A stretch of DNA of 61,592 bases, the filler included. It is 6 parts of 6 records of this genome, joined end to end, with 100 filler letters (N's around TTAATTAATTAA, not from the genome) between each part and the next. Parts side by side here need not be neighbours in the genome. Positions count along the whole stretch, not along the records: positions 32,575 to 44,518 come from SRR2962707_5454; 5 more parts are not named here. One strand, written 5' to 3'. The notes under the pieces were generated by a model that had not been told where the DNA came from, made no database searches, and was given only the letters and a program-made list of their open reading frames with translations. Below, in pieces: positions 20,577 through 56,126 of the stretch; within the stretch, counting starts at the first letter, position 1; each line of letters opens with the position of its first letter. Both the position numbers and the translations under genes were made by a program.

Positions 20577-20676
20577 NNNNNNNNNNNNNNNNNNNNNNNN
20601 NNNNNNNNNNNNNNNNNNNNTTAATTAATTAANNNNNNNNNNNNNNNNNNNNNNNNNNNNNNNNNNNNNNNNNNNN
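20577..20676. other. Artificial contig spacer
   Basis: N44-TTAATTAATTAA-N44; stops in all frames; identical at every junction. Confidence 0.99.
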
Positions 20677-26591: not shown

Positions 26592-26691
26592 NNNNNNNNN
26601 NNNNNNNNNNNNNNNNNNNNNNNNNNNNNNNNNNNTTAATTAATTAANNNNNNNNNNNNNNNNNNNNNNNNNNNNNNNNNNNNNNNNNNNN
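26592..26691. other. Artificial contig spacer
   Basis: N-TTAATTAATTAA-N. Confidence 0.99.
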
Positions 26692-32474: not shown

Positions 32475-32574
32475 NNNNNNNNNNNNNNNNNNNNNNNNNN
32501 NNNNNNNNNNNNNNNNNNTTAATTAATTAANNNNNNNNNNNNNNNNNNNNNNNNNNNNNNNNNNNNNNNNNNNN
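32475..32574. other. Artificial contig spacer
   Basis: N-TTAATTAATTAA-N. Confidence 0.99.
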
Positions 32575-32749
32575 TTTTCATAGATTAACCATCAACCTAA
32601 GAGCATATCATCTATTGTTATTAATAAATGACATGATGAAATTAACCATTTGTGAAACTTCTAAATCTCAAATACAGAAGGGATCAGGGATGAATTAAAT
32701 GTAAGTATCTGACAGTCTTTGTGTTATAAAGAAGGGACAGGAATTGATT

Positions 32750-32787
32750 TACCCAATTCTAGGTAGTAGAATACCCAAAAATGGGTA
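32750..32787. promoter_or_regulatory. Tandem 16-bp palindromes, putative NarL/LuxR-type operator pair
   Basis: TACCCA-ATTC-TAGGTA (32750-32765) and TACCCA-AAAA-TGGGTA (32772-32787), 22 bp apart; same motif at 36204. Confidence 0.65.
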
Positions 32788-32791
32788 TTGG

Positions 32792-33451
32792 CTAAATGGC
32801 AGCAATCCCATTCTGAAATGCGAACTTCACCAGGCCAACCGCGTTTTTCGCCTTGGTTTTTTTCATGAGGTTCTTCCGATGGGTGTGAACAGTTTGCTCA
32901 CTCAAAAACAATTTCTCACCAATTTCCTTCATAGTCAGTTCCTGACAGATAAGCTGGAGGATCTCAATTTCCCGAGGACTGATATCAGCTCGTCTGGCGA
33001 CACCTTTATCCAATCCATCCTTTTGAACTTTTTTATGCAACGCTTTAGAGACAAGCTGATTGTAATAGAAGTCATTATTTACTACAGAAACGATTGCTTT
33101 GTGAACTTCATCAGGTTCTGCATTTTTAAGAAGGTAACTATGAACGCCTATTTCGATAAGGTCCGAAATAATTTGAAGTGAATCGTGCATAGAGATCATG
33201 ATGATCTTCACCTCCGGATGTTTCGCAGTAATTTTTTTAGAAGCCTCCCACCCATCCATGGTGGGCATTTCCAGATCCAGTAAAATCAAATCGAAATGAT
33301 TCTCGCTGAGTTTTTCCAAAGCTTCCTTCCCATTCTCTGCATCTTCCACATGGCCCACCTCCTCAAAAGACTCAAGAAGCATCATGGTGCCACGACGGAA
33401 TAAGGTATGGTCATCTGTGACCAGAATTTTTAGCTTATCAGGTTGACTCAT
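32792..33451 (-). CDS. NarL/LuxR-family response regulator
   Basis: ILVTDDH, LLDLEMPTMDG, YLLKNA, HTH ISPREIEIL...TVHTHRKNLMKK. Confidence 0.96.
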   Translation of the reverse strand: MSQPDKLKILVTDDHTLFRRGTMMLLESFEEVGHVEDAENGKEALEKLSENHFDLILLDLEMPTMDGWEASKKITAKHPEVKIIMISMHDSLQIISDLIEIGVHSYLLKNAEPDEVHKAIVSVVNNDFYYNQLVSKALHKKVQKDGLDKGVARRADISPREIEILQLICQELTMKEIGEKLFLSEQTVHTHRKNLMKKTKAKNAVGLVKFAFQNGIAAI

Positions 33452-33472
33452 CTCACTCGGTTGACCCTCAAA

Positions 33473-34240
33473 TTAATCAATCGAAGTGTCTATTACCAAA
33501 TCTACTTTTGCTCCGCCCGTTTTAGGATTAGAAAAAGTAGTTTTAGCGCCTATGGCCTGTGCCCGGTTTTTGATGTTTAGAAGACCAATCCCATCACTTT
33601 TTTTCAATACATCTTCGGGAAAACCTTTGCCATTGTCCGTATATGATATGATGGTATTAGAGTTTTCTCTTTTTATGGAAAGGTCAATCGCATTAGCATC
33701 TGAGTGCTTGATCGAGTTATTCAAAAGCTCCTGTACAATTCGATAAAGCATCAACGAATTTTCCTCTGAGAATTTGGGGTCCTCCCAATGTGAGATGTTG
33801 GTATGTAGTTCTTCTGAATTCACTTTTTCAAAGAGATCTTCAATGGCTTGTTTGAGCCCATATTTTTTTAAGATGATTGGCATCATCTGGTGGGAGATGG
33901 TTCTCACCTGATTTATTGTCTCATCAAGGTGTCCCAACACCGGCTTCAACACGTCTATATCCTTTTTCCGGTTGGCAACCTGTATGTTAAGTTTGATCGT
34001 TGAAAGCATGGCGCCCACACTATCATGCAATTCCGTTCCCAATCTACTTCGTTCTTCCTCTTGTGATTTCAAAGTTGCCGTAAGCATTTCTGACTGGTGC
34101 TTAGTTTCTAGCGATTGTACCTCAAGCTCATTTTCTAGCACTTTCCTACGATAGAGCAGGACAAAGAACACTACAGAAAAAGCCATAAGCATAACACCAA
34201 TGGTTCCGATGATAACAAGCAAGATGACTTTACCTTCCAC
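33473..34240 (-). CDS. Single-TM HisKA_3 histidine kinase with no sensor domain
   Basis: One N-terminal TM, then QEEERSRLGTELHDSVG, YRIVQELLNNSIKHS, DNGKGF, GIGLLNIKNRA; 255 aa, GTG start. Confidence 0.93.
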   Translation of the reverse strand: MEGKVILLVIIGTIGVMLMAFSVVFFVLLYRRKVLENELEVQSLETKHQSEMLTATLKSQEEERSRLGTELHDSVGAMLSTIKLNIQVANRKKDIDVLKPVLGHLDETINQVRTISHQMMPIILKKYGLKQAIEDLFEKVNSEELHTNISHWEDPKFSEENSLMLYRIVQELLNNSIKHSDANAIDLSIKRENSNTIISYTDNGKGFPEDVLKKSDGIGLLNIKNRAQAIGAKTTFSNPKTGGAKVDLVIDTSID

Positions 34241-34260
34241 AGTGACAAATTAAAAATTTA

Positions 34261-34953
34261 TTACTCGAAATCCTTGGATGGATTCAGTAATGGATCATAA
34301 CGATCCATGTGAAGGAGCACTAAAACATAGAAGAGGAGATAGTTTTTTGAAGTGTTTGCTAATAAATTAATTACAGAAATTGGAGTATACTGCTCCGCTG
34401 TAATTCCCAGGTCAAATACCAGATACTTTACAAATAAGTTTTTCAAGAAAGTGAAGGAATAGTATCCAAAGAAAGCAGTGATCAGATAAAAGCTCGGAGC
34501 TTTGGAAAGTTGAACGTTGGATTTATTTAGCAACTTCAAATAGCCTAAAACAGAAAGTGCAATGAATACAACACCTGAAAAGGTTGTTGTTATCACGTTA
34601 TGTTCATAAAAGGAATAGAGGTATATAAATGAAGGGACTGTGAGGACTACAAAAAGAGCAATCAGAAGCTTAATGAGTTTGATCTTCTCCGGAAGAATTT
34701 TCATAAAGCACCATGACATCAAAAAATAGTTCATAATTACCCACCAGTTACTTCCGATGTAGCTGTTTGGATAGAAGTATTTGATGAAAATGTAGATTCC
34801 AAAATCAAAAGAAAATGAAACAAATACGATATAAAAAATAATGGCTTTAACTGTCTTCCATTCTTTGATGAAGAATAGGAAATACAAAACCGCTGGTAGA
34901 CCAGAAAAGCGGTTAACCATATAAAACAAATCCATGAAGTCAGAGGTAGTCAA
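34261..34953 (-). CDS. ~7-TM membrane protein, paralog 2 (putative receptor/sensor subunit)
   Basis: About seven hydrophobic segments; shares SFxxD, PNSYI, NYFLMxWxFxKILP, INLLANTxKN with 35061-35741; start uncertain (TTG or the ATG six codons in). Confidence 0.8.
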   Translation of the reverse strand: MTTSDFMDLFYMVNRFSGLPAVLYFLFFIKEWKTVKAIIFYIVFVSFSFDFGIYIFIKYFYPNSYIGSNWWVIMNYFLMSWCFMKILPEKIKLIKLLIALFVVLTVPSFIYLYSFYEHNVITTTFSGVVFIALSVLGYLKLLNKSNVQLSKAPSFYLITAFFGYYSFTFLKNLFVKYLVFDLGITAEQYTPISVINLLANTSKNYLLFYVLVLLHMDRYDPLLNPSKDFE

Positions 34954-34956
34954 AGC

Positions 34957-35064
34957 TTACTTTTTAGACTCGTAAGCTTTGGAAAAAGCAACCAAAAACC
35001 AAACAACGCCTCCGAAAATAAGCGCCGTTCCATACACCACGATATTTACTATAATATCAATCAT
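34957..35064 (-). CDS. 35-aa single-TM small protein (not in ORF track)
   Basis: MIDIIVNIVVYGTALIFGGVVWFLVAFSKAYESKK; ATGA overlap with the upstream stop; fills the gap to the next gene. Confidence 0.65.
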   Translation of the reverse strand: MIDIIVNIVVYGTALIFGGVVWFLVAFSKAYESKK

Positions 35065-35741
35065 TTGGTTTTGACAGGTTTTATGGTGTCTGGGTGGCCT
35101 TTGTCTATGAGGATAAGCGTGTAGAAGAGAATGAAGTTTTTAGTTGTATTAGCCAGTAAATTAATTATGTGAATTATTCGATAGGCAGTTTTAGATATTT
35201 CTTGATCGAAAATCAAATAATTGTCAAAGATGCTCTGAAGTAGTATTATGCTATGAAAAACAAAAAAGGAAGTAACCATCCAAAAAATAGGTTGACTTTT
35301 TAGTTGACCTGATGGATTTCTGAGAAGCTCGTAATAGGTAATTAAGGACAAGAAGACGAAGCTTAAATCACTTATTAAATACAAAACAGTATTTGGCTCT
35401 AAAAATGAATAAATCCAAAAACTGACAACTGCTGCGCAAGCAAAAACAACGGAAAGCAGTTTTAGAATGTTAATGGATGAGGGTAATATTTTCTTGAAAA
35501 GCCAAAGCATCAAGAAATAATTGAAAATAAGCCAAATGTTGTTGATGATGTAGCTATTAGGAAAGACCAGACGGATAAAGAAATAATTAATATTGTCTGC
35601 TAAAAACGAAAGAAATAAGACAGAAAAGATGATAAAAAAGACACTATTCGTCTTCTTATCTCTTCTGAAGAAAAAGAACAGAAGCCCCGGTATTGCCGAG
35701 GCTCCATTTATTTCTAATAACCAATGATGTAATGTTTCCAA
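35061..35741 (-). CDS. ~7-TM membrane protein, paralog 1 (putative receptor/sensor subunit)
   Basis: About seven hydrophobic segments; clear paralog of 34261-34953. Confidence 0.82.
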   Translation of the reverse strand: METLHHWLLEINGASAIPGLLFFFFRRDKKTNSVFFIIFSVLFLSFLADNINYFFIRLVFPNSYIINNIWLIFNYFLMLWLFKKILPSSINILKLLSVVFACAAVVSFWIYSFLEPNTVLYLISDLSFVFLSLITYYELLRNPSGQLKSQPIFWMVTSFFVFHSIILLQSIFDNYLIFDQEISKTAYRIIHIINLLANTTKNFILFYTLILIDKGHPDTIKPVKTK

Positions 35742-35756
35742 TTTATCTTGTAGAAT

Positions 35757-36116
35757 TTACCCAATACCATCTGGACAAACCGGTGGACATTTTTGTCCGG
35801 AATTTGCCGGATCATCCTCATCTCTTGTATTAATTTTCGCCGCAGCGCCTAAGGACTTCATTTTTTTATCCAGAATATTACCATCAGCATCCGCAGGGAA
35901 AAGCACTAGACACTCTTCATTATTGTCATTCAGTCCTTTAAATATCCAAATGCCATCAGAGCCAGGATAATTACACAGTTTTTCCAGGATATCTCTTCCA
36001 TATAAGTATCCGTTGAGCTCGGCATCCGGGTTCGCCTTTTGATAATCCTTTACCCACTTTTTGGCCTTTGTCTTATCCATCGTACTGCCAATCTTTTTTA
36101 CATCTTTTTTTGCCAT
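35757..36116 (-). CDS. 119-aa soluble protein with C-terminal CPPVC motif (candidate signal precursor)
   Basis: No signal peptide; ...YGRDILEKL...GIWIFKG...LVLFPADADGNIL...NSGQKCPPVCPDGIG; first gene of the operon. Confidence 0.82.
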   Translation of the reverse strand: MAKKDVKKIGSTMDKTKAKKWVKDYQKANPDAELNGYLYGRDILEKLCNYPGSDGIWIFKGLNDNNEECLVLFPADADGNILDKKMKSLGAAAKINTRDEDDPANSGQKCPPVCPDGIG

Positions 36117-36145
36117 GTTATATTAAGGTTTAGTTGGTTTGAAGA

Positions 36146-36176
36146 CAATGGTAGCTTGATCTTCATTTTAATCAAA
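36146..36176 (-). promoter_or_regulatory. Bacteroidota sigma-A-type promoter of the signalling operon
   Basis: Minus strand TTTG (36176-36173), 19-nt spacer, TACCATTG (36153-36146); one mismatch to TAnnTTTG. Confidence 0.65.
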
Positions 36177-36203
36177 GAAGAGTGTAAGAAAAGGAATGAA
36201 AAA

Positions 36204-36219
36204 TACCCAAAAGTGGGTA
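36204..36219. promoter_or_regulatory. 16-bp palindrome, putative operator of the NarL-type regulator
   Basis: TACCCA-AAAG-TGGGTA; resembles the NarL 7-2-7 architecture; equidistant from two divergent -7 boxes. Confidence 0.68.
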
Positions 36220-36269
36220 GGGAGAGAGGGATGAAAAGCCAGAAATTAGATCAAAACTGAAGAAGCAAC

Positions 36270-36277
36270 TATATTTG
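36270..36277 (+). promoter_or_regulatory. Bacteroidota -7 promoter element
   Basis: TATATTTG, a perfect TAnnTTTG, 26 nt upstream of ATG36304. Confidence 0.6.
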
Positions 36278-36303
36278 CTCTCCACTTAAAAATTGATCAA
36301 AAG

Positions 36304-36411
36304 ATGGCAATGCTAGGAATAATTATCGGACTGTTTGTGTTGGCAATTCTTTGCCCATTTATCTTACCAAACAAAGCGGTAAGCAAACACAAAGGAGATC
36401 ACGTAGAGTAA
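36304..36411 (+). CDS. 35-aa single-TM small protein (not in ORF track)
   Basis: MAMLGIIIGLFVLAILCPFILPNKAVSKHKGDHVE; own -7 box and A-rich leader. Confidence 0.6.
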   Translation: MAMLGIIIGLFVLAILCPFILPNKAVSKHKGDHVE

Positions 36412-36418
36412 GAAAAGA

Positions 36419-36547
36419 TTAATTCTTTTTCTGGTTTTCTTTTCGGGCATTTACAAATGCTAACGCGTGAGCAAACGCCACTAAAAAGATCACAATATTT
36501 ACAAAAATGTTAACGCCTTCGGTTACTGCTGGATTCGTTAAGTTCAT
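36419..36547 (-). CDS. 42-aa single-TM small protein (not in ORF track)
   Basis: MNLTNPAVTEGVNIFVNIVIFLVAFAHALAFVNARKENQKKN; hydrophobic core plus basic tail. Confidence 0.5.
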   Translation of the reverse strand: MNLTNPAVTEGVNIFVNIVIFLVAFAHALAFVNARKENQKKN

Positions 36548-36587
36548 CTGTATAGTTTCTTTTGTTTGCGCTTCATTCTTAGAAGCA

Positions 36588-37739
36588 TTATGATGCGAAG
36601 ATAGGTTCTTTCATCGCTTTCAGCAATTTTCTTACATCCAATTCGTCGTTATAAACATTAGGGGATATCCTAATGGCATCTCCTCGTAGACTTACACTCA
36701 CCCGGTGCTTTTTCAATGATTGCTGGAGCAACTCCTGATCTACACTCTTCGGAAGTCGTACACCAAACAAATGATTAGCGCGCCACGCTCCTTCTTCAAT
36801 GATGTAGCCCATTGCTTTCATTTCAGCAATTGCATCAACCATCAAGTCATGCGTGTATTGCTGAATATTTTCAGGGGACCATTTAAGTATCTGTTTGATA
36901 GCCTGATGTAGCATAGGGACCAAAATAAAATTGCTGTGCTCACCCACCTCGTACCTTAAAGCTTGTTCGCGATAGTCCTCTTGATAATTGACTAATTGCG
37001 CAAAGTCTTCACTGTTCTTTCTGTTGATCCAGTTTTCTTCCAAAGGAGTGCCTCCATCGAAAGCGGACCCGTAATAAGCCAGGCCTATCGAATATGGTCC
37101 CAAAAGCCATTTATATCCTGCACAAATAAGTGCATCAGGCCGAATGTCTTTAACGCTAAAAGGTAATGCACCTACCGACTGTGTCCCATCGATGATAAGC
37201 AAGCCACCCACTTCGTCAAGTTTTTCCCGGATCTTTTTCAGTTGAAATAACGTGCCATCAGACCAATGCACATGCCCAATGGCTACAACTCTCGTTTCTT
37301 CGTCAATGGACGCTAAAATTTTTTCATTCCAGCTTTCACCTCTCTTGGCACTGTCTGTAGGTGAAATGACATTAATAGAAATACCTTTTTCTTTTAACTT
37401 CAACCACGGATAAACATTGCTTGGAAATTGTGCTTGTGCCAATAGTATTTCTCCATCTTTGAATGGAATGTTTTGTGTAACGTTCGCTAATCCATAAGAA
37501 GCCGATGGAACAATCACCACCCTATTTGGCTCATCATTGACTATAAGCTTGGAAAAGATTCGTCTCAATTGGTCACTTTCTTTGAAAAAATCTTCTCCTG
37601 AGATTTTTGCCGGATTCCTTTTCTGTTTTAATCCGGCAACTCCGGCCTTTTCCACTTTTTTCATCAGTGGCGACATGTAAGCACAGTTTAGGTATGCGTT
37701 TTTACGTTGGAGCAAAAATTTTTGTCGCTGACATTTCAT
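36588..37739 (-). CDS. Class V PLP-dependent aminotransferase / cysteine desulfurase-like
   Basis: YLNCAYMSP, QFPSN, IDGTQSVG, AGYKWLLGP (PLP lysine), IRISPNVYN. Confidence 0.92.
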   Translation of the reverse strand: MKCQRQKFLLQRKNAYLNCAYMSPLMKKVEKAGVAGLKQKRNPAKISGEDFFKESDQLRRIFSKLIVNDEPNRVVIVPSASYGLANVTQNIPFKDGEILLAQAQFPSNVYPWLKLKEKGISINVISPTDSAKRGESWNEKILASIDEETRVVAIGHVHWSDGTLFQLKKIREKLDEVGGLLIIDGTQSVGALPFSVKDIRPDALICAGYKWLLGPYSIGLAYYGSAFDGGTPLEENWINRKNSEDFAQLVNYQEDYREQALRYEVGEHSNFILVPMLHQAIKQILKWSPENIQQYTHDLMVDAIAEMKAMGYIIEEGAWRANHLFGVRLPKSVDQELLQQSLKKHRVSVSLRGDAIRISPNVYNDELDVRKLLKAMKEPIFAS

Positions 37740-37755
37740 GAGTTATAATTACTAT

Positions 37756-38073
37756 ATGACATTCAAGATATTGGATTCTGAACAAAAGGCAGAGGCTTTT
37801 TTTGAAGATGGTGTACCCAAATTAATCAGAGTGCAAGAAAAGGAGATATGCATAGTACGAAAGGGGAAAAAGTACTATGCGTTTGATAATGCCTGTCCAC
37901 ACATGGGGGCTAAACTCCATCAAGGAAACACCAATCCTTTCTACGAAATTGTATGTCCCCTACACACCTATCGTTTTCACATGAAGACAGGTGAGGAATC
38001 CAATAAAAGATGCAGACCCATGAAAACGTATTATGTCCACTCTAATGAAGGTGGTCTTTTTATTGATTGCTGA
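37756..38073 (+). CDS. Rieske [2Fe-2S] ferredoxin
   Basis: CPHMG...VCPLH ligand boxes; start set at ATG37756 to avoid overlap with the divergent gene. Confidence 0.88.
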   Translation: MTFKILDSEQKAEAFFEDGVPKLIRVQEKEICIVRKGKKYYAFDNACPHMGAKLHQGNTNPFYEIVCPLHTYRFHMKTGEESNKRCRPMKTYYVHSNEGGLFIDC

Positions 38074-38076
38074 GAG

Positions 38077-39273
38077 TTATCCGATTCGGAAGAACTTAAC
38101 TACACCAACTAACCAATCAGCTATACTCTGTGCAACTTCATTTCCTGACCCTCGTCCTACTATATACAGGACAAACAGCACATAAATGCTCAACAATAAG
38201 TAAGATTTACGCTTGCCAAAGTAACTACCGCTTGTAAAGATGATTACTGCCAGTACTGTAAGCAACCAGAGTAAGAACCGTAGCTCACTACTGAGATCCA
38301 CAATCTCAGGAGGCATTTGAATCGGACCATTGATGATGGTGAAAATGAATAGAGGGAAACCTAATGCAAAGCAAATGTCGAAAATGTTGCTACCAAGTGC
38401 GTTTGAGATTGCGTCATCGTACTGCCCTCTTTTGGCATCTTTTATTGAAATGATCGTGTCAGGAAAGCTCGAGGCTGCAGATGCCAAAATGAGCGCAACA
38501 AACATTACCGGAATGTTTAATCCATTAAACTCACCCAGCCCAGCTACCTGGTAGGTATCCGAACCAATCCACTCACAGGCTAAAACCAGGAAGTAACAGA
38601 CAAGCGCAATCGAGATGGTAGAAAAAACCAAAAGAGACCAGGCTCTGCGGTTACTTATGGCATTATTGCCAATAAAGACACGCTCCAGATCAAATGTGAT
38701 GAGTCCCTTTAAGAAAGGACCTTGCGGTTCTTCAGGGCTTTCAAATACATCTTCGTCCAGATGGCCTTCCTCCAGAAGTTCTTCGCGCTCCGATTTTTTC
38801 ATCGTTGCAAACATGTAAACGATGTAAACAACATAAACAAGCATGAGCAACATGCCGTGGTACCAGTATAATGTGGATCCGCTAATCAAAATGAGGAAGA
38901 TCAGTTCAGCAATAATCAATGCAATCCCGTCTCTCAACAAGACTTTTCGCGATACCTCTACTCGCTTGGTCATTTTCATCCCTATCACTGCAAGCACTGC
39001 AACAGCAGGAATTACCATACCATTAAAAATGGCGCTACCTGCCGTGGTTCCAATTCCTCCTGAAAAACCTTCAGCGTCAGTTAGGACAAATAAGAAGAAC
39101 AACGAAGTAAATACCTCCGGCATGGAGCTGGCGATGGCGTTGATAGTTGCACCTCTTACACCTTCAGAGAGATTTCTGCCAATGAATTCAGATGCTGTCA
39201 TAAAGCCGTCTCCGGCTCTCCAGATTATTATGCAACAAAACGTTATTAGGAGTAGGGGGATGATTATGCCCAT
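38077..39273 (-). CDS. Na+/Ca2+ antiporter (CaCA family)
   Basis: Alpha repeats GATINAIASSMPE...GSAIFN and ASSFPD...LGSNIFD. Confidence 0.93.
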   Translation of the reverse strand: MGIIIPLLLITFCCIIIWRAGDGFMTASEFIGRNLSEGVRGATINAIASSMPEVFTSLFFLFVLTDAEGFSGGIGTTAGSAIFNGMVIPAVAVLAVIGMKMTKRVEVSRKVLLRDGIALIIAELIFLILISGSTLYWYHGMLLMLVYVVYIVYMFATMKKSEREELLEEGHLDEDVFESPEEPQGPFLKGLITFDLERVFIGNNAISNRRAWSLLVFSTISIALVCYFLVLACEWIGSDTYQVAGLGEFNGLNIPVMFVALILASAASSFPDTIISIKDAKRGQYDDAISNALGSNIFDICFALGFPLFIFTIINGPIQMPPEIVDLSSELRFLLWLLTVLAVIIFTSGSYFGKRKSYLLLSIYVLFVLYIVGRGSGNEVAQSIADWLVGVVKFFRIG

Positions 39274-39437
39274 GTATATTTTATTCGTTCAGTGTTTAAA
39301 GCGGTGACTCTTTTAGCTGGAGAAGGCCTAAATTAACAAAGATTTCATTCAGGCAAACAAGTTCCACTATCTTTTATCATCAGATAAGTCAACTTCAAAC
39401 TGGTTTTGTCTAATTTTTCGGCTCAAAAGAAGCGTGT

Positions 39438-40199
39438 ATGTATATCAATCTGTCAGGTTTAAACATCCTGGTGACAGGAGCAAGTAGAGGGATAGGCAAA
39501 GCTCTGGCCACCAAATTGGCTGAGGCAGGAGCAACTATAGCAGTGCATTACAACAAAAATGTACGTGAAGCGGAAAACCTTGCTCATATTCTTGGAAATG
39601 AATCAAAAGCGTTCCAAGCGGACTTTTCAAAACCGGATGAGGCGGCCAAATTATTTGAGCGTGTGAGTTTGGAAATGGGAAGCATAGAAATTGTGATAAA
39701 CAATGCAGGCCTGGCCAAGCCGTCCACCATTGACTCAAAGGATGATGAATGGATGAAATCATGGAATGAGACAATGATGGTAAACCTGAATTCTTCTGCG
39801 ATTATTTGCAAGAAGGCCGTTCAGCATTTCATCAGTCGGAAAGCAGCCGGAAGAATCATCAATATTGCTTCTCGTGCGGCTTTTAGAGGAGAAGAAGCCG
39901 AATATATTGCCTATGCAGCGTCAAAAGCAGGCCTGGTTTCATTGACCAGGTCAATTGCCAGATCTTACGGAAAGGAAGGAGTTAAGGCATTTGTGATCGC
40001 TCCCGGCTTTGTGCGAACAGACATGTCACAGGAGTTTATGCAGCAATACGGAGAAGACCATGCAAAGGGGGATTTGGCACTGGAAAGGCTCACCGAGCCA
40101 AAGGACATTGCTCCACTGGTCACTTTTATTGCAAGTGGAATGGCCGATCATGCAACGGGCGCCACTTTCGACATCAATGCGGGAAGCTATTTACACTAA
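39438..40199 (+). CDS. Short-chain dehydrogenase/reductase (FabG-like)
   Basis: TGASRGIG, NNAG, YAASK, APGFVRT. Confidence 0.95.
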   Translation: MYINLSGLNILVTGASRGIGKALATKLAEAGATIAVHYNKNVREAENLAHILGNESKAFQADFSKPDEAAKLFERVSLEMGSIEIVINNAGLAKPSTIDSKDDEWMKSWNETMMVNLNSSAIICKKAVQHFISRKAAGRIINIASRAAFRGEEAEYIAYAASKAGLVSLTRSIARSYGKEGVKAFVIAPGFVRTDMSQEFMQQYGEDHAKGDLALERLTEPKDIAPLVTFIASGMADHATGATFDINAGSYLH

Positions 40200-40260
40200 T
40201 GAGGTTTCATTTTAGGGATTAATTCCTAAATTAGAAGGACGAAACACAACTACAGCGATA

Positions 40261-40680
40261 ATGGAAGACAATATTAAAAACCACCTGAAAGCATTAATCC
40301 AACTTTCGATTATTGATCGTGATTTTGGGGAGCCTGAAAAAACCTATGTTTATACGATTGGAAAAGCAAATCGAGTTCCGGAAAAGGAAATTGACGAGTT
40401 AGTAAAAGAGGTATTAAATACCAAAGAAAATAGCGATGTGAACTTTGAAGGCCTGCTTTCGGAAGAAAGATTCGATTACCTGTACGATGTGATCCAGTTG
40501 ATGAAAATTGATGGGGAAGTCTTTCTAACAGAAATAAGATATTGCGAGGATGTAGCTGAAAAACTTGGCTATGAGAAAAAGGTAGTCAAGAAAATGTCTT
40601 CCAGAATTTATGGAGATCCATCAATCACCGGTAACAGAGAGGCATTAATGAAAGAGGCCAATAAATATTTGAAAAAGTAA
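40261..40680 (+). CDS. TerB-family protein
   Basis: Helical; IDRDFGEPEK and MKIDGEVFLTEI TerB-like acidic motifs. Confidence 0.75.
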   Translation: MEDNIKNHLKALIQLSIIDRDFGEPEKTYVYTIGKANRVPEKEIDELVKEVLNTKENSDVNFEGLLSEERFDYLYDVIQLMKIDGEVFLTEIRYCEDVAEKLGYEKKVVKKMSSRIYGDPSITGNREALMKEANKYLKK

Positions 40681-40694
40681 CCTACTAAGAAATT

Positions 40695-41090
40695 ATGAGC
40701 ATTAAGGCGAAACTAAGTGTGCTGGTTCAGTTAGCGAATATCGATGGTGAATTTGCTGGTGAAGAAAAAGATTTGATTTATATGATTGGCAAGGCCAATG
40801 GTATCAGCGAAGAAGAAATTAATAATATGGTGGAAAGCCCTGAGCCTCTTCCTCCTTTGAGTACCATGTCTGAAGATGATAAGTTCGAATATTTATTTCA
40901 TTTAGTACAGCTTATGAAAATCGACAGCCAGGTGTATTTATCGGAAATTAAGTTTTGCGAAGAGTTGGCAGAAAAGCTGGGCTTCAAGCGAAACGTGATT
41001 TCAGAATTGTCCGCAAGAATTTACAGCGATCCGGCCATAGCCTCGGATGTCGCCTCCCTCAAGCGGGAAGTTAGAAAACACAGACATTGA
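40695..41090 (+). CDS. TerB-family protein (tandem paralog)
   Basis: LANIDGEFAGEEK and LMKIDSQVYLSEIKFCEELAEKLG, aligning with the upstream gene. Confidence 0.78.
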   Translation: MSIKAKLSVLVQLANIDGEFAGEEKDLIYMIGKANGISEEEINNMVESPEPLPPLSTMSEDDKFEYLFHLVQLMKIDSQVYLSEIKFCEELAEKLGFKRNVISELSARIYSDPAIASDVASLKREVRKHRH

Positions 41091-41096
41091 TTTCAG

Positions 41097-41124
41097 ATCC
41101 CGATGAATACCATCGGGATTTTTT
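41097..41124. terminator. Intrinsic terminator between convergent genes
   Basis: ATCCCGATG-AATAC-CATCGGGAT followed by a T tract. Confidence 0.8.
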
Positions 41125-41947
41125 ATGATTCTTTTGGAATAAGCTGTTGATGAGTAATGCCAAAATGATGTTCCAGTTTTGAGAGAAACTCGTCCTCATG
41201 TAAAATGCCCGACTCTTTTGTTTCACCCAAATCCGTAATCTTCAATTTACGATCGGTTAAGGTTACCCGACCATTAGGAAGAAGACGAGTGGCCAGTTTT
41301 TTTTGAGTAAATGGAGATGCAGAGGATGATTGGTGATACTCGCACATTTCCATAAACTGAATGAGCTGCTTTTCCTGAGTGGTAAACCGAAGCTTCGTTT
41401 CATAATAACTTGTATCATTAGAAACTTTTAGAATCAGGTTTTCATCCGGATCTTCCTCAATTTTCCAGTATTTGGTATAGTCCACCTGCACTTCTCCAAC
41501 CTTAATTTTCAATGGATTAACGATTCCATCACCAAAGCCAACATCGGCCAGCCACAAGACATCATCAATCCCAACAACAATTCCCATATGATCAAATGGC
41601 CGTCCAAACGTCATTGTTTCCTGACTAAATACTTCAGCCGAAATGATATGGCAATCAAAACCTAAATTGCTTAGCAGGTGATAGAAAAGGCCGTTTAGTT
41701 CATAGCAAAAGCCACCCCTTCCCCGCTTGACCACCTTATCAAAAATTTTTTTGTAATCCAGTATGATTTTGCTCCGATAGTGAATGTCCAGGTTTTCAAA
41801 CGGGATGTGTATAAGGTGAGCCTTTTGCAGTTCTTTCAGATAGGTCAGTGATGGAGGTTTTTTTTCTAATCCAATTCGCTTCAGGTAAGCACCCACATCT
41901 ATTTTGGATGCTTTAGGGCTGTTTTGGAAAAAGTTTAGCTTTCTCAA
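41123..41947 (-). CDS. Arylamine N-acetyltransferase
   Basis: IPFENL, RGGFCYELN (Cys), DHM (His), ADVGFG (Asp) catalytic triad. Confidence 0.94.
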   Translation of the reverse strand: MRKLNFFQNSPKASKIDVGAYLKRIGLEKKPPSLTYLKELQKAHLIHIPFENLDIHYRSKIILDYKKIFDKVVKRGRGGFCYELNGLFYHLLSNLGFDCHIISAEVFSQETMTFGRPFDHMGIVVGIDDVLWLADVGFGDGIVNPLKIKVGEVQVDYTKYWKIEEDPDENLILKVSNDTSYYETKLRFTTQEKQLIQFMEMCEYHQSSSASPFTQKKLATRLLPNGRVTLTDRKLKITDLGETKESGILHEDEFLSKLEHHFGITHQQLIPKES

Positions 41948-43023
41948 TTTTTAATGTTCAGCTCCTGAGTGAGATTACCAATCATGTTGTTTAATGCTTC
42001 CTGCCATGTGACATCTGCATCCCATTCACCTACATGTACATTTTTTGAAATATTCTGACGTATGTAAAACTTGTAGACGATGGCATCTCTTGGAATGGTT
42101 TTCACACGCGTTTGATCCGGCATGATTGGAATAATAGAGACAAATCCTGTTTCACCCGGAGGCACTTCGTAATCCAGCATTTCTTTTACTATGCCAGCAG
42201 AAGACCGGACAGACCGTAACAAAAACTGATATCGGTTTCTTTTCAAATCATCATCAGACATTGGATCAATGATTTCATACTCATAAGGGTATGATTGTAT
42301 TAGTTGTTCAAGCTGACGGTTTTTCTCAGCAACTTCCTGATTGAATCTTTTGACATTTTCTAACACCTCTGTGTCAGATATGTTGGTAGAATCCAATGGG
42401 CTGAACCGCTCCACTGCGAGTTTACTTCTTCGCAAAATACCAGGATAATTTTTCAACAATGTATTCTCCACAATCGAAAGTCCTTTGAGTACATTGGGCT
42501 TTTCCGGTATCAGAAAATTGGCCAGTTCCTGATCTGCTCTTCGCACTTCTTTTCCAACATTTAACAATAATGTGTAGAGATCTGCTGCTTCCTGATAAAA
42601 GGCATCACCCCCATCTTTGATTAAGCGACTGCTGCCACTGAATGGAGCCATCAAAAACTCAAAACCATTATTTGTCTGACTAATCAAAATAATGTTTTCT
42701 ATTCTTCGCTGATTAAACAACTCTACATAGGCAAGCCGTGCATGGTGGCTTGCAGTGTAATTGATATCACTGAGATAAAAGATGGCATCTATTCCCATGG
42801 TCACGAATGCCTGATGCACTTGTGCGAGGAATTTTTGGGGATCTCCTACGGAGACAAACTCATCGTTCCTTTCAGGAATTGAAAAAATAACAGCGGTACG
42901 CTCACTCCCTAGCTTTTCCGGTACCTTCAGCGTCTTGTTGAAAGAAACATAATCGTACAGCGGGGTTTGACCATAAAGCAAACCCCCAATCATATAAAAT
43001 AGTACCGTAAAAAATCTCTTCAT
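41944..43023 (-). CDS. Secreted hypothetical protein
   Basis: 359 aa; Bacteroidota-style signal peptide followed by Gln (LLYG/QT); ATGA overlap with the NAT gene. Confidence 0.8.
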   Translation of the reverse strand: MKRFFTVLFYMIGGLLYGQTPLYDYVSFNKTLKVPEKLGSERTAVIFSIPERNDEFVSVGDPQKFLAQVHQAFVTMGIDAIFYLSDINYTASHHARLAYVELFNQRRIENIILISQTNNGFEFLMAPFSGSSRLIKDGGDAFYQEAADLYTLLLNVGKEVRRADQELANFLIPEKPNVLKGLSIVENTLLKNYPGILRRSKLAVERFSPLDSTNISDTEVLENVKRFNQEVAEKNRQLEQLIQSYPYEYEIIDPMSDDDLKRNRYQFLLRSVRSSAGIVKEMLDYEVPPGETGFVSIIPIMPDQTRVKTIPRDAIVYKFYIRQNISKNVHVGEWDADVTWQEALNNMIGNLTQELNIKN

Positions 43024-43097
43024 TAGTTGAACACTAAAGTGCTAATTTTATAAGAACTCAACTCTCAAATATCTCAATTTAGTATAACTATATAACT

Positions 43098-43673
43098 ATG
43101 AAAACCCGATGTACCTGGTGTGCCAACTCCTTTGATGAATATGTTCGCTATCATGATGAGGAATGGGGAGTTCCGGTCCATGATGATCAAAAGCATTTTG
43201 AATTCCTGGTATTGGAAAGCGCTCAGGCAGGTTTAAGCTGGGCCACAATTCTTAAGAAAAGGGAAGGATACCGAAAGGCATTTGCCAAATTCGACTACCG
43301 AACAGTAGCGAAATATGGTGAAGGGATGGTTGAGGATCTTTTGCGAGATGCCTCGATCATTCGAAATAAGGCCAAAATAGAAGCAACGATTAATAATGCT
43401 CGCAGATTTATGGAAGTGCAGGGGGAGTTCGGCACTTTCGATAAATACATCTGGCAATTCGTGGGTGGCAGACCAATTGTGAATAGTTGGATAACCATGA
43501 AAGAAGTCCCAGTTACAACAAAAGAGTCAGACGCCTTATCGAAAGATTTAAAAAAGAGAGGGTTTAAGTTTGTCGGCTCCACCACCATGTATGCTCACAT
43601 GCAAGCCATAGGACTGGTTAATGATCATACCACGGATTGCTTCAGGTATGAGGAGTTGAAAAATAAAATTTGA
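43098..43673 (+). CDS. tag: DNA-3-methyladenine glycosylase I
   Basis: RCTW, YHDEEWG, LESAQAGLSW, GFKFVG, NDHTTDC. Confidence 0.96.
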   Translation: MKTRCTWCANSFDEYVRYHDEEWGVPVHDDQKHFEFLVLESAQAGLSWATILKKREGYRKAFAKFDYRTVAKYGEGMVEDLLRDASIIRNKAKIEATINNARRFMEVQGEFGTFDKYIWQFVGGRPIVNSWITMKEVPVTTKESDALSKDLKKRGFKFVGSTTMYAHMQAIGLVNDHTTDCFRYEELKNKI

Positions 43674-43711
43674 CCGACAGTCGATTAAATTTGTGAGCTA
43701 AAGAGTTAGGG

Positions 43712-44518
43712 ATGATTGAGAAACTGGAGGAAATAAAGCATCGATTTGAGGAGGTAGGTCAGCTTATTGTACAACCGGACATTGTCACGGACATGGAGAA
43801 GTATGGCAAGCTGAATAAAGAATACAAGGATCTAGAAAAAATAGTAGTCAAGTATAAGGCATATACTCAGGCCAAAAGCAACATGAAAAATGCTAAAGAG
43901 GTGCTGAGTACAGAAAAGGATCCGGAATTTCGTGAAATGGCGAAAGCCGAAATCGAGGAACTTGAACCGCAAATTGAATCTCTGGAAGAAGAGCTGAAGT
44001 TTATGCTCATTCCTAAAGACCCCAATGACAGCAAAAATGTGATTCTGGAAATTCGTGCTGGCACAGGTGGAGATGAGGCATCTATTTTTGCGGGAGATCT
44101 TTTTAGAATGTACAAATCCTATGCAGAGGACCAAAACTGGTCTTTTTCTATATTGAATTTTAGTGAAGGAAGCGCCGGAGGATACAAGGAAATAGTGGCT
44201 TCTGTAGAAGGAGAGGATGTTTATGCAAAACTAAAATTTGAGTCCGGAGTTCATCGCGTGCAAAGAGTGCCAGCAACTGAATCCCAAGGGAGAGTACATA
44301 CTTCCGCAGCAACTGTTGCTGTTTTGCCAGAGGCAGAAGAGGTGGATGTGGAGCTAAACATGGGAGATATTAGAAAAGATACATTCCGGGCATCTGGTGC
44401 CGGAGGTCAGCACATCAACAAAACAGAATCTGCTGTTCGGTTGACACATATTCCATCTGGTTTGGTAGTAGAGTGTCAAGATGGTCGCTCACAGCATGCC
44501 AACTATGATAAAGCATTG
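43712..44518 (+). CDS. prfA: Peptide chain release factor 1, 3' truncated
   Basis: [29 protein letters not shown] (PxT motif), [16 protein letters not shown] -7 box at 43686. Confidence 0.97.
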
Positions 44519-44618
44519 NNNNNNNNNNNNNNNNNNNNNNNNNNNNNNNNNNNNNNNNNNNNTTAATTAATTAANNNNNNNNNNNNNNNNNNNNNNNNNN
44601 NNNNNNNNNNNNNNNNNN
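44519..44618. other. Artificial contig spacer
   Basis: N-TTAATTAATTAA-N. Confidence 0.99.
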
Positions 44619-56026: not shown

Positions 56027-56126
56027 NNNNNNNNNNNNNNNNNNNNNNNNNNNNNNNNNNNNNNNNNNNNTTAATTAATTAANNNNNNNNNNNNNNNNNN
56101 NNNNNNNNNNNNNNNNNNNNNNNNNN
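56027..56126. other. Artificial contig spacer
   Basis: N-TTAATTAATTAA-N. Confidence 0.99.

Follow-up and report, generated by a model that had tools for sequence, protein, structure and literature searches.

A hypervariable cassette of tail and seven-helix protein beside a sensor-less histidine kinase: a candidate split-receptor two-component module in Bacteroidota

Histidine kinases that carry no input domain of their own pose the question of where their input comes from. We take up this question for one operon in a stretch of DNA of 61,592 nucleotides (the window), in which six unrelated contigs are joined end to end by filler. The fourth of these (11,944 bp, guanine-plus-cytosine (GC) content 0.40), of a marine Bacteroidota bacterium, is Ekhidna-like, with genes 85-94% identical to those of an Ekhidna metagenome-assembled genome (locus L001), and it is syntenic with 18 further loci, mostly of Ekhidna, as well as with short fragments; the operon is also carried by a cultivable species, Ekhidna lutea DSM 19307 (locus L007). 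On the contig six open reading frames (ORFs) on the minus strand, separated by gaps of -4 to 21 nt according to ORF calling, encode a soluble protein of 119 amino acids (aa), which we call P119, a seven-transmembrane (7-TM) protein, a 35-aa peptide with a single transmembrane (TM) helix, a second 7-TM protein, a histidine kinase and a NarL-type response regulator. A model that had seen only the letters of the window proposed this six-gene operon as a peptide-signalling system (the original prediction); all six ORFs are present, and the kinase with one TM helix and no input domain and the NarL regulator that it described are borne out by intact Pfam domains and motifs.

We report that the C-terminal tail of P119 and the first 7-TM protein form one hypervariable block, which is exchanged as a unit between near-identical strains. 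New in this work are a family of stand-alone 7-TM proteins resembling G-protein-coupled receptors (GPCRs), a family of small proteins that end in CPPxC, and the hypervariable cassette that links the two. Comparative genomics thereby names a new stand-alone 7-TM family, found in roughly one of every nine Bacteroidota genomes sampled, as the candidate source of input for sensor-less two-component kinases. We tentatively propose an uncharacterised four-component, split-receptor two-component module, spread across Bacteroidota, with a cognate tail-receptor pair, positive feedback and, by preference, self-recognition; we regard this as quite possible, though short of probable. Such a module would be a natural modular pairing of a 7-TM receptor with a histidine kinase, and would bear on the evolution of receptor specificity and on orthogonal signalling channels. 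Literature searches, chiefly at the level of abstracts, returned no description of it, and the strain-specific peptide 'dialects' that they did return were described for Firmicutes, with none found for Bacteroidota.

The cassette is seen most directly when the window is compared with L001. In a sliding comparison the DNA identity stays at 90-99% in the flanks until the last ~50 nt of the P119 gene, drops to 40-50% over the first 7-TM gene, and rises again from the last ~80 nt of that gene into the peptide gene that follows. At the protein level at least five of the seven differences between the two P119 copies fall within the last 12 residues, and the first 7-TM proteins are merely 42% identical, against 89% for the second. 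The pairs L010/L017 and L003/L014 repeat this pattern of cassette and flank identity. A 19.4-kb metagenome contig (run X5) matches positions 32576-35141 and 35834-36420 of the window at ~97% (79 of 2566 nt and 34 of 587 nt differ, respectively), and between them carries 683 different letters in place of the 692 letters of the window; the window's own allele of the cassette was found in three other metagenome runs. The exchanged segment thus covers the tail of P119 and the 7-TM protein as far as TM7, and the variable part of the tail itself amounts to ~12-20 residues, proline-rich and acidic.

The first 7-TM gene is the fastest-evolving gene of the locus. Over 16 loci the mean pairwise identity is 0.92 for the Na/Ca exchanger, 0.90 for the regulator, 0.73 for both the aminotransferase and the 35-aa peptide, 0.70 for the kinase, 0.64 for P119 and 0.46 for the first 7-TM protein. 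The tree of the 7-TM proteins is long-branched, its distinct clades fail to track the flanking genes, and sister pairs in it have tail residues in common (CPPWCP in L008/L014; CPPKCP in L002/L005 and also in L011/L015). Tail distance and 7-TM distance are correlated in a Mantel test (rho 0.45, p 2e-4, N = 19), and the correlation persists when the body of P119 (0.39, p 6e-4) or the regulator (0.41, p 2e-4) is controlled for, and likewise with the kinase. Co-variation and joint swapping of this kind mark, by analogy, the specificity regions of agr and comQXPA.

The association of the 7-TM gene with a kinase extends well beyond Ekhidna. A 7-TM profile finds matches in 45 of 401 Bacteroidota genomes sampled evenly, every match being a stand-alone ORF of ~210-250 aa; Ekhidna, Hymenobacter, Mucilaginibacter and Tenacibaculum supply the named members, in every case annotated 'hypothetical protein'. 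We looked closely at the 25 distant loci that scored best among these matches; they comprise the best match from each of 19 genomes and six further copies. The order foreseen in the original prediction, small protein, 7-TM protein, HisKA_3 kinase and NarL regulator, holds at 21 of them, where the gene after the 7-TM gene encodes a short single-TM HisKA_3 kinase (254-283 aa); a PAS-HisKA kinase follows at two loci and no kinase at the other two. The next gene after the 21 kinases encodes a Response_reg plus GerE protein in 18 cases, a receiver cut by the end of the locus in two and an ORF with no Pfam match in one (L033). Directly upstream of the 7-TM gene lies an ORF with a C-P-x-x-C end (or CPPC or CPGSPGC) at 17 of the 25 loci, one with a single-Cys CPP at two and one with no motif or an unclear one at six, and 13 of these upstream ORFs match P119 profiles at E < 0.01. 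No fusion of 7-TM protein and kinase occurs among 32 phmmer matches from 1.84 billion representatives, the longest of which is at most 237 aa; among longer proteins no fusion scored either, which is weak evidence. One further candidate, a Verrucomicrobiae locus (L024), was discarded as spurious, with no match to the 7-TM or the small-protein profiles. In Ekhidna genomes there is, besides, a divergent second copy of the entire module (L051, G001:C1:3048000-3054000; L052, G002:C9:501500-507500), whose small proteins have what by eye is a hydrophobic, signal-like start and end in CPDVC or CPTTC.

What kind of protein is the proposed receptor? Neither 7-TM protein of the window matches a family in Pfam, NCBIfam, PHROGs or PADLOC, no Pfam family is common to more than one of 29 family members, and a search of the ESM Atlas returned just unnamed Bacteroidota clusters; the known enzyme or transporter family that would have spoken against the original prediction was therefore not among the matches. 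The AlphaFold model of the first 7-TM protein consists of seven long helices (pLDDT, the predicted local distance difference test, 91.9; pTM, the predicted TM-score, 0.88), and by the positive-inside rule its N-terminus would lie outside and its C-terminus inside. Foldseek returns a mixture of rhodopsins and GPCRs (best E 0.047), and VIA gives a best Z of 15.5 to a designed GPCR-like fold, with GPCRs and rhodopsins at Z 11-13, a range common for helical bundles. The predicted structure is thus that of a generic GPCR/rhodopsin-like bundle, from which no enzyme or transporter family stands out. Its best-conserved helices are TM6 (0.54) and TM7 (0.51), the others scoring 0.34-0.45. The 7TMR-DISM_7TM family was matched by one of the 29 members, weakly (E 2.5), and the fold search gave generic bundles only. 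No invariant Cys or His able to serve as a protease residue is present in the family alignments. A Lys-Asn pair in mid-TM7, nearly invariant within the Ekhidna clade, prompted the idea of a microbial rhodopsin, which we rejected: the lysine (K201) is mostly I, A, Y, H, L or another residue in distant members and so is not family-wide, and none of the 29 members matches Bac_rhodopsin.

The original prediction had spoken of twin receptors. Both 7-TM proteins are indeed present in the window, but the pair is not a conserved feature, since the second is found in only five of the 19 related complete loci, which with the window form one clade (support 100/99). At loci that lack it, a non-coding spacer of ~30-260 nt lies between the genes for the 35-aa peptide and the kinase, and its DNA identity falls to 9-30% between close relatives (for example L010:9100-9230 and L003:9107-9180); this spacer may be the remnant of a lost second 7-TM gene. 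The 35-aa peptide has a tblastn match in 18 of the 19 complete related loci, being missing from L016, and has no counterpart in the distant modules, in which the kinase gene directly adjoins the 7-TM gene. It matches nothing in Pfam, PHROGs or PADLOC, and its single NCBIfam match, to the Ecr small membrane protein, is below the cutoff (E 0.006). The second 7-TM protein and the 35-aa peptide are genus-specific embellishments of the module.

P119, for its part, has a conserved body of ~92 aa, an acidic linker and then the tail. Among 22 Ekhidna-type sequences C110, P111, C114 and P115 never change, and conservation is strong over the first ~92 residues; the positions around the Cys pair vary freely. 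When distant members are included (21 small-protein sequences), C-P remains invariant and the second Cys nearly so, and the two cysteines are the sole near-universal residues. Searches of Pfam, NCBIfam, PHROGs and PADLOC matched P119 to no family; judged by its sequence, P119 is the founder of an uncharacterised family whose hallmark is a C-terminal C-P-P-x-C(P). Structure prediction adds little here: the AlphaFold model of P119 is unreliable (pLDDT 43.8), a profile search of the Protein Data Bank with the small-protein alignment gave a best E of 0.078, which we judged to be chance, and a predicted complex of P119 with the first 7-TM protein, run without alignments, received a score of 0.01 and a mark of 0.34, values that weigh on neither side as regards binding. 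Nor does P119 resemble the long leaders of ribosomally synthesised and post-translationally modified peptides: it belongs to no family in Pfam or in NCBIfam, which we take to contain models for the NHLP and Nif11 leaders, and the conserved neighbourhood holds no enzyme or exporter of that kind.

The downstream half of the module is more readily classified. In the kinase Pfam finds a HisKA_3 domain (E 2.2e-8) together with HATPase_c (E 3.1e-12), and each of the H, N and G boxes is intact: H72 in ELHD, NNSIKH at 174, DNGKG at 202 and GIGL at 217. Ahead of its one TM helix there are only ~3 residues outside the membrane, and that helix hardly varies across all 19 related kinases, which are only ~70% identical as whole proteins. 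The regulator has the canonical receiver residues D13, D14, D59, S87 and K109, and is 87-99% identical to the window copy in the Ekhidna loci and 79% in L016. The best NCBIfam matches of the two proteins include the UhpB (E 2.9e-25), LiaS (2.7e-15), UhpA and NarL models, all below their cutoffs. Kinase and regulator are, by their predicted domains and residues, a two-component system of the HisKA_3 and NarL/LuxR classes.

The original prediction had noted a palindrome on both sides of the operon, which is a candidate site for the regulator: TACCCA-N4-TGGGTA is exact at 32772 and at 36204. In the window it has three matches against 0.05 expected, a number that none of 100 shuffles reached. With up to two mismatches it lies ~100 nt before the start of P119 in all 22 related loci that cover the region, in a gap that in the window is 187 nt long and separates P119 from a divergent 35-aa ORF. 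The first copy past the regulator stop is present in all 19 related loci that cover the end of the regulator, and the second, tandem copy is half-conserved in their alignment. Since the half-sites are fixed and the 4-nt spacer varies, the element is presumably bound by a protein, an RNA hairpin being the less likely reading. Exact palindromes number three in a 3.9-Mb related genome and five in a 4.2-Mb one, two of which flank the operon in each case, and reversed-pattern controls gave zero and one. The other exact copies (one in G001, three in G002) lie before unknown proteins or within a gene and are uninformative for a regulon; those at L045:3030, L047:2968 and L048:3053 precede ~215-aa helical proteins and a 157-aa membrane protein of unknown function, and the proteins behind these copies have no detectable mutual relation (E 0.074). 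Upstream of P119 is a promoter-like element, both boxes of which are conserved in 12 aligned loci. The centre of the palindrome would lie ~70 nt upstream of the transcription start deduced from it, and this placement near -70 suggests an activator-like position.

From these parts we envisage the following mechanism. The first 7-TM protein, as the ligand-specific input subunit, would recognise the Cys-Pro-Pro-x-Cys tail of the small protein whose gene lies directly upstream, and would contact the kinase, whose near-invariant single TM helix would take the signal inside the membrane from this stand-alone, GPCR-like partner in place of an input domain; in Ekhidna the 35-aa TM peptide may assist this step. 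The phosphorylated NarL-type regulator would bind the palindrome ~70 nt upstream of the operon promoter and activate it, giving positive feedback, and would also bind the two tandem palindromes past its own gene, which lie ahead of a conserved, putatively structured RNA. Tail and 7-TM protein would constitute a matched, strain-specific pair swapped as a cassette, with kinase, regulator and small-protein body held constant. The output would be signalling for self-recognition, with a CPPxC peptide or protein made by the cell itself, exported and acting between cells, comparable to the comQXPA and agr pherotypes; we lean to self-recognition because pherotype systems show wholesale replacement of ligand-receptor pair alleles. 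In its strongest form the proposal would make this the first peptide pherotype system, for kin recognition or quorum sensing, of the Bacteroidota, with a self-made CPPxC-loop peptide, a GPCR-like 7-TM receptor, a sensor-less kinase, cassette swapping and an RNAIII-like downstream RNA effector; that full combination we consider possible but doubtful.

Several observations weigh against the proposed signalling module. The P119 of the window has no signal peptide, no TM helix and no other hydrophobic segment, and neither Pfam nor the gene content of the related loci places a protease, a modifying enzyme or an exporter at the locus, so that the route of P119 to the periplasm is unexplained. Its strongly conserved body of ~90 aa is unusual for a pheromone precursor, short ones being typical. 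Judged by eye, several small-protein homologues begin as lipoproteins or with a signal anchor and others do not; the anchored ones suggest a tethered rather than a diffusible partner, and the differing predicted locations are hard to reconcile with a single conserved binding geometry. The second 7-TM protein stays 89% identical though the tail changes, and hence cannot be tail-specific in the same way. The regulatory argument leans on assumed consensus sequences, in that the promoter-like element fits TTTG-N19-21-TAnnTTTG, which we take to be the Bacteroidota promoter consensus, and the 7-2-7 layout of the palindrome resembles what we presume NarL sites to look like. Finally, the coding regions for tail and 7-TM protein are only ~15 nt apart, and with such physical linkage their co-variation could reflect co-transfer rather than co-adaptation; despite this caveat the limits of the cassette are those of the two segments for which a match would be required. 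The peptide-signalling idea of the original prediction therefore survives in part, with gene order, CPPxC hallmark, cassette, lack of a fused form and the activator-like palindrome on its side, and the missing export signal, the missing protease and exporter and the large body against it.

Several of these difficulties would disappear if the small protein were never released and instead acted in cis as a co-sensor, its CPPxC end detecting redox state, a thiophilic metal or envelope stress and modulating the 7-TM protein and kinase of its own cell, in the manner of RcsF-IgaA, NlpE-CpxA, MgrB-PhoQ and LiaF-LiaS. This principal alternative, which we consider rather unlikely, explains the absent export signal, the large domain-like and conserved body and the differing location of the homologues, those with lipoprotein or TM anchors (by eye) being expected to stay tethered; it also suits the status of the Cys pair as the sole near-universal residues, a C-x3-C(P) arrangement that recalls what we take to be the CxxxC copper/redox motif of Sco proteins, and the presence of the partner-dependent UhpB and LiaS among the strongest, sub-cutoff kinase matches. 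What it does not offer is an obvious reason for tail and 7-TM protein to be replaced between strains ~97% identical in their flanks, or for the 7-TM clade to be mirrored in the variable positions of the tail. In a further arrangement the 7-TM protein alone senses an external small molecule or lipid and P119 is a co-transcribed output, a chaperone or a kinase-inhibiting feedback protein. GPCR- and rhodopsin-like folds do usually bind small ligands, UhpC-UhpB is a precedent for a separate accessory membrane sensor, and among the 25 distant loci two lack an adjacent kinase and six lack a clear CPxxC partner; the cassette would then vary through changing ligand range or through phage or bacteriocin pressure on the 7-TM protein. 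However, three genome pairs and a metagenome contig place the cassette boundary within P119, immediately ahead of the tail, and tail residues follow the 7-TM clade even with the P119 body controlled for. Neither fact is explained on this view, which we hold to be distinctly improbable. Least credible of all, and very unlikely, is a bacteriocin-like system, with the tail as toxic peptide, the 7-TM protein as cognate immunity protein and the two-component system as the regulator of both. A conserved N-terminal part, a hypervariable C-terminus and a variable membrane protein with a sharp identity boundary do resemble polymorphic toxin-immunity cassettes, but the variable part is a proline-rich, acidic stretch of just ~12-20 residues, the 7-TM proteins are mutually homologous whatever the allele, unlike typical immunity replacement, their near-constant partner is a sensor-less kinase (21 of 25 loci), and the locus has no exporter and no PADLOC or PHROGs match.

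Set beside characterised systems, the proposed module works most like ComQXPA or agr combined with accessory-sensor kinases such as UhpC-UhpB and LiaF-LiaS, and is a member of none of them. ComP is a kinase of the HisKA_3 class, and the variable block of comQXPA spans the pre-peptide and the membrane-sensor part of ComP. comQXPA is described as four adjacent genes on one strand (PMC4008528), and comQXPA strains as dividing into pherotypes (PMC4408185). The present module likewise has a NarL-type regulator (ComA in Bacillus subtilis) and a variable block that covers peptide and sensor, here tail and 7-TM protein. It differs in having no ComQ isoprenyl transferase, no Pfam or NCBIfam family being assigned to the four other operon proteins; in its sensor, a separate polypeptide here and fused to the kinase N-terminus in ComP; and in its precursor, which has 119 aa with a conserved body and CPPxC instead of a prenylated Trp, in a Gram-negative phylum. 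In the staphylococcal agrBDCA operon, too, genes for a precursor, a kinase, a regulator and a polytopic membrane protein stand together under autoregulation, and peptide and membrane partners alike fall within its hypervariable region. The regulator here is nevertheless of the GerE and not the LytTR type, the kinase is HisKA_3 and not of the agr class, AgrB, AgrD and LytTR are without a match in Pfam and NCBIfam, and the 7-TM protein lacks a protease-type invariant Cys or His.

With UhpC-UhpB-UhpA, LiaF-LiaS-LiaR and BceAB-BceS the module has in common a HisKA_3-class kinase, a NarL-type regulator and an input that would come from another membrane protein. LiaF is described as an accessory regulator of LiaS (PMC3543457; PMC11237479), with LiaI-LiaF-TM and Toastrack/DUF2154 domains (PMC11237479). 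No LiaF-like Pfam match was obtained for the 7-TM proteins, the 35-aa peptide or P119, and the partner here belongs to a new 7-TM family, unlike the major facilitator superfamily, LiaF/Toastrack or ATP-binding cassette partners of those kinases. We know of no hypervariable ligand cassette in the UhpC-UhpB, LiaF-LiaS or BceAB-BceS systems. Sensory rhodopsin II is a stand-alone 7-TM protein that passes an intramembrane signal to HtrII, a protein of few TM helices that controls a histidine kinase, and the complex of the two (7zcm) appears in the Foldseek output with a TM-score of 0.52 (E 0.24). The present family has no Bac_rhodopsin match, its TM7 Lys is limited to the Ekhidna clade and a few others, and here the kinase itself carries the TM helix. 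The Rcs envelope-stress relay (RcsF-IgaA-RcsCD-RcsB), lastly, runs from a small Cys-containing (lipo)protein through a polytopic inner-membrane protein and a kinase to a NarL-family regulator, and some of the small-protein homologues have N-termini that by eye are lipoprotein-like; Pfam and NCBIfam detect no sequence relation, the P119 of the window has no signal peptide, and strain-level cassette swapping is to our knowledge not a feature of Rcs.

Table 1. Positions of the operon genes and associated features in the window
Feature	Position	Strand	Remarks
Operon contig	32575-44518		fourth of six contigs
RNA-like element, first ~70 nt	32575-32647	-	putatively structured; cut by contig end; full element L001:11462-11694
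Tandem palindromes TACCCAATTCTAGGTA and TACCCAAAAATGGGTA	32750-32787		just beyond regulator stop; 22 bp centre to centre; 32772-32787 exact, 32750-32765 with one mismatch
NarL/LuxR-type response regulator	32792-33451	-	219 aa; Response_reg E 1e-27, GerE E 1.2e-16
Histidine kinase	33473-34240	-	255 aa; HisKA_3 residues 63-121, HATPase_c 162-251
Second 7-TM paralogue	34261-34953	-	230 aa; 40% identical to first
35-aa single-TM peptide	34957-35064	-	start overlaps first 7-TM stop by 4 nt
First 7-TM protein	35061-35741	-	226 aa; proposed ligand-specific input subunit
Hypervariable cassette	35142-35833		last ~25 P119 codons (tail), 15-nt spacer, ~200 first codons of first 7-TM
P119	35757-36116	-	119 aa, soluble; C-terminal end ...NSGQKCPPVCPDGIG
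Promoter-like element TTTG-N19-TACCATTG	36146-36176	-	upstream of P119
Upstream palindrome TACCCAAAAGTGGGTA	36204-36219		exact; proposed regulator site
Tiny single-TM ORF, 35 aa	36304-36411	+	divergent from P119; own TATATTTG box; 79-100% conserved
Tiny single-TM ORF, 42 aa	36419-36547	-	68-100% conserved
Linkers between contigs	20577-20676, 26592-26691, 32475-32574, 44519-44618, 56027-56126		N44-TTAATTAATTAA-N44

The contig ends 217 nt past the stop codon of the regulator, and for this reason the downstream context was taken from the related loci. There, after ~150 variable nt beyond the tandem palindromes, lies an RNA-like element of ~190 nt that is nearly invariant in 19 loci and has a terminator at its end. 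Of its 57 predicted pairs, ten show compensatory changes. A search of Rfam placed nothing at or near the gathering score of any family. The element is single-copy in G001, and BLAST over 200 other genomes of the order sample gave one match, of 27 nt only. It may be a small RNA controlled by the regulator, or a structured 3' untranslated region or 3' extension of the operon.

Gene order around the module is constant in the 19 related loci: a Na/Ca exchanger, a Rieske protein, an aminotransferase and two tiny TM ORFs are followed by P119 and the 7-TM protein, then by the 35-aa peptide (missing only from L016), and last by kinase and regulator. Pfam identifies the same neighbours in the window, the aminotransferase being of class V. 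Conservation of the two tiny ORFs (Table 1) was counted over the 22 related loci and fragments that cover them; the divergent 35-aa ORF and P119 have the palindrome-bearing intergenic region in common. Contig GC spans 0.40 to 0.61 across the window, so that adjacent segments need not share one organism. A poly-A tract closes the contig ahead of the final linker, and an (AGC)n repeat opens the last contig.

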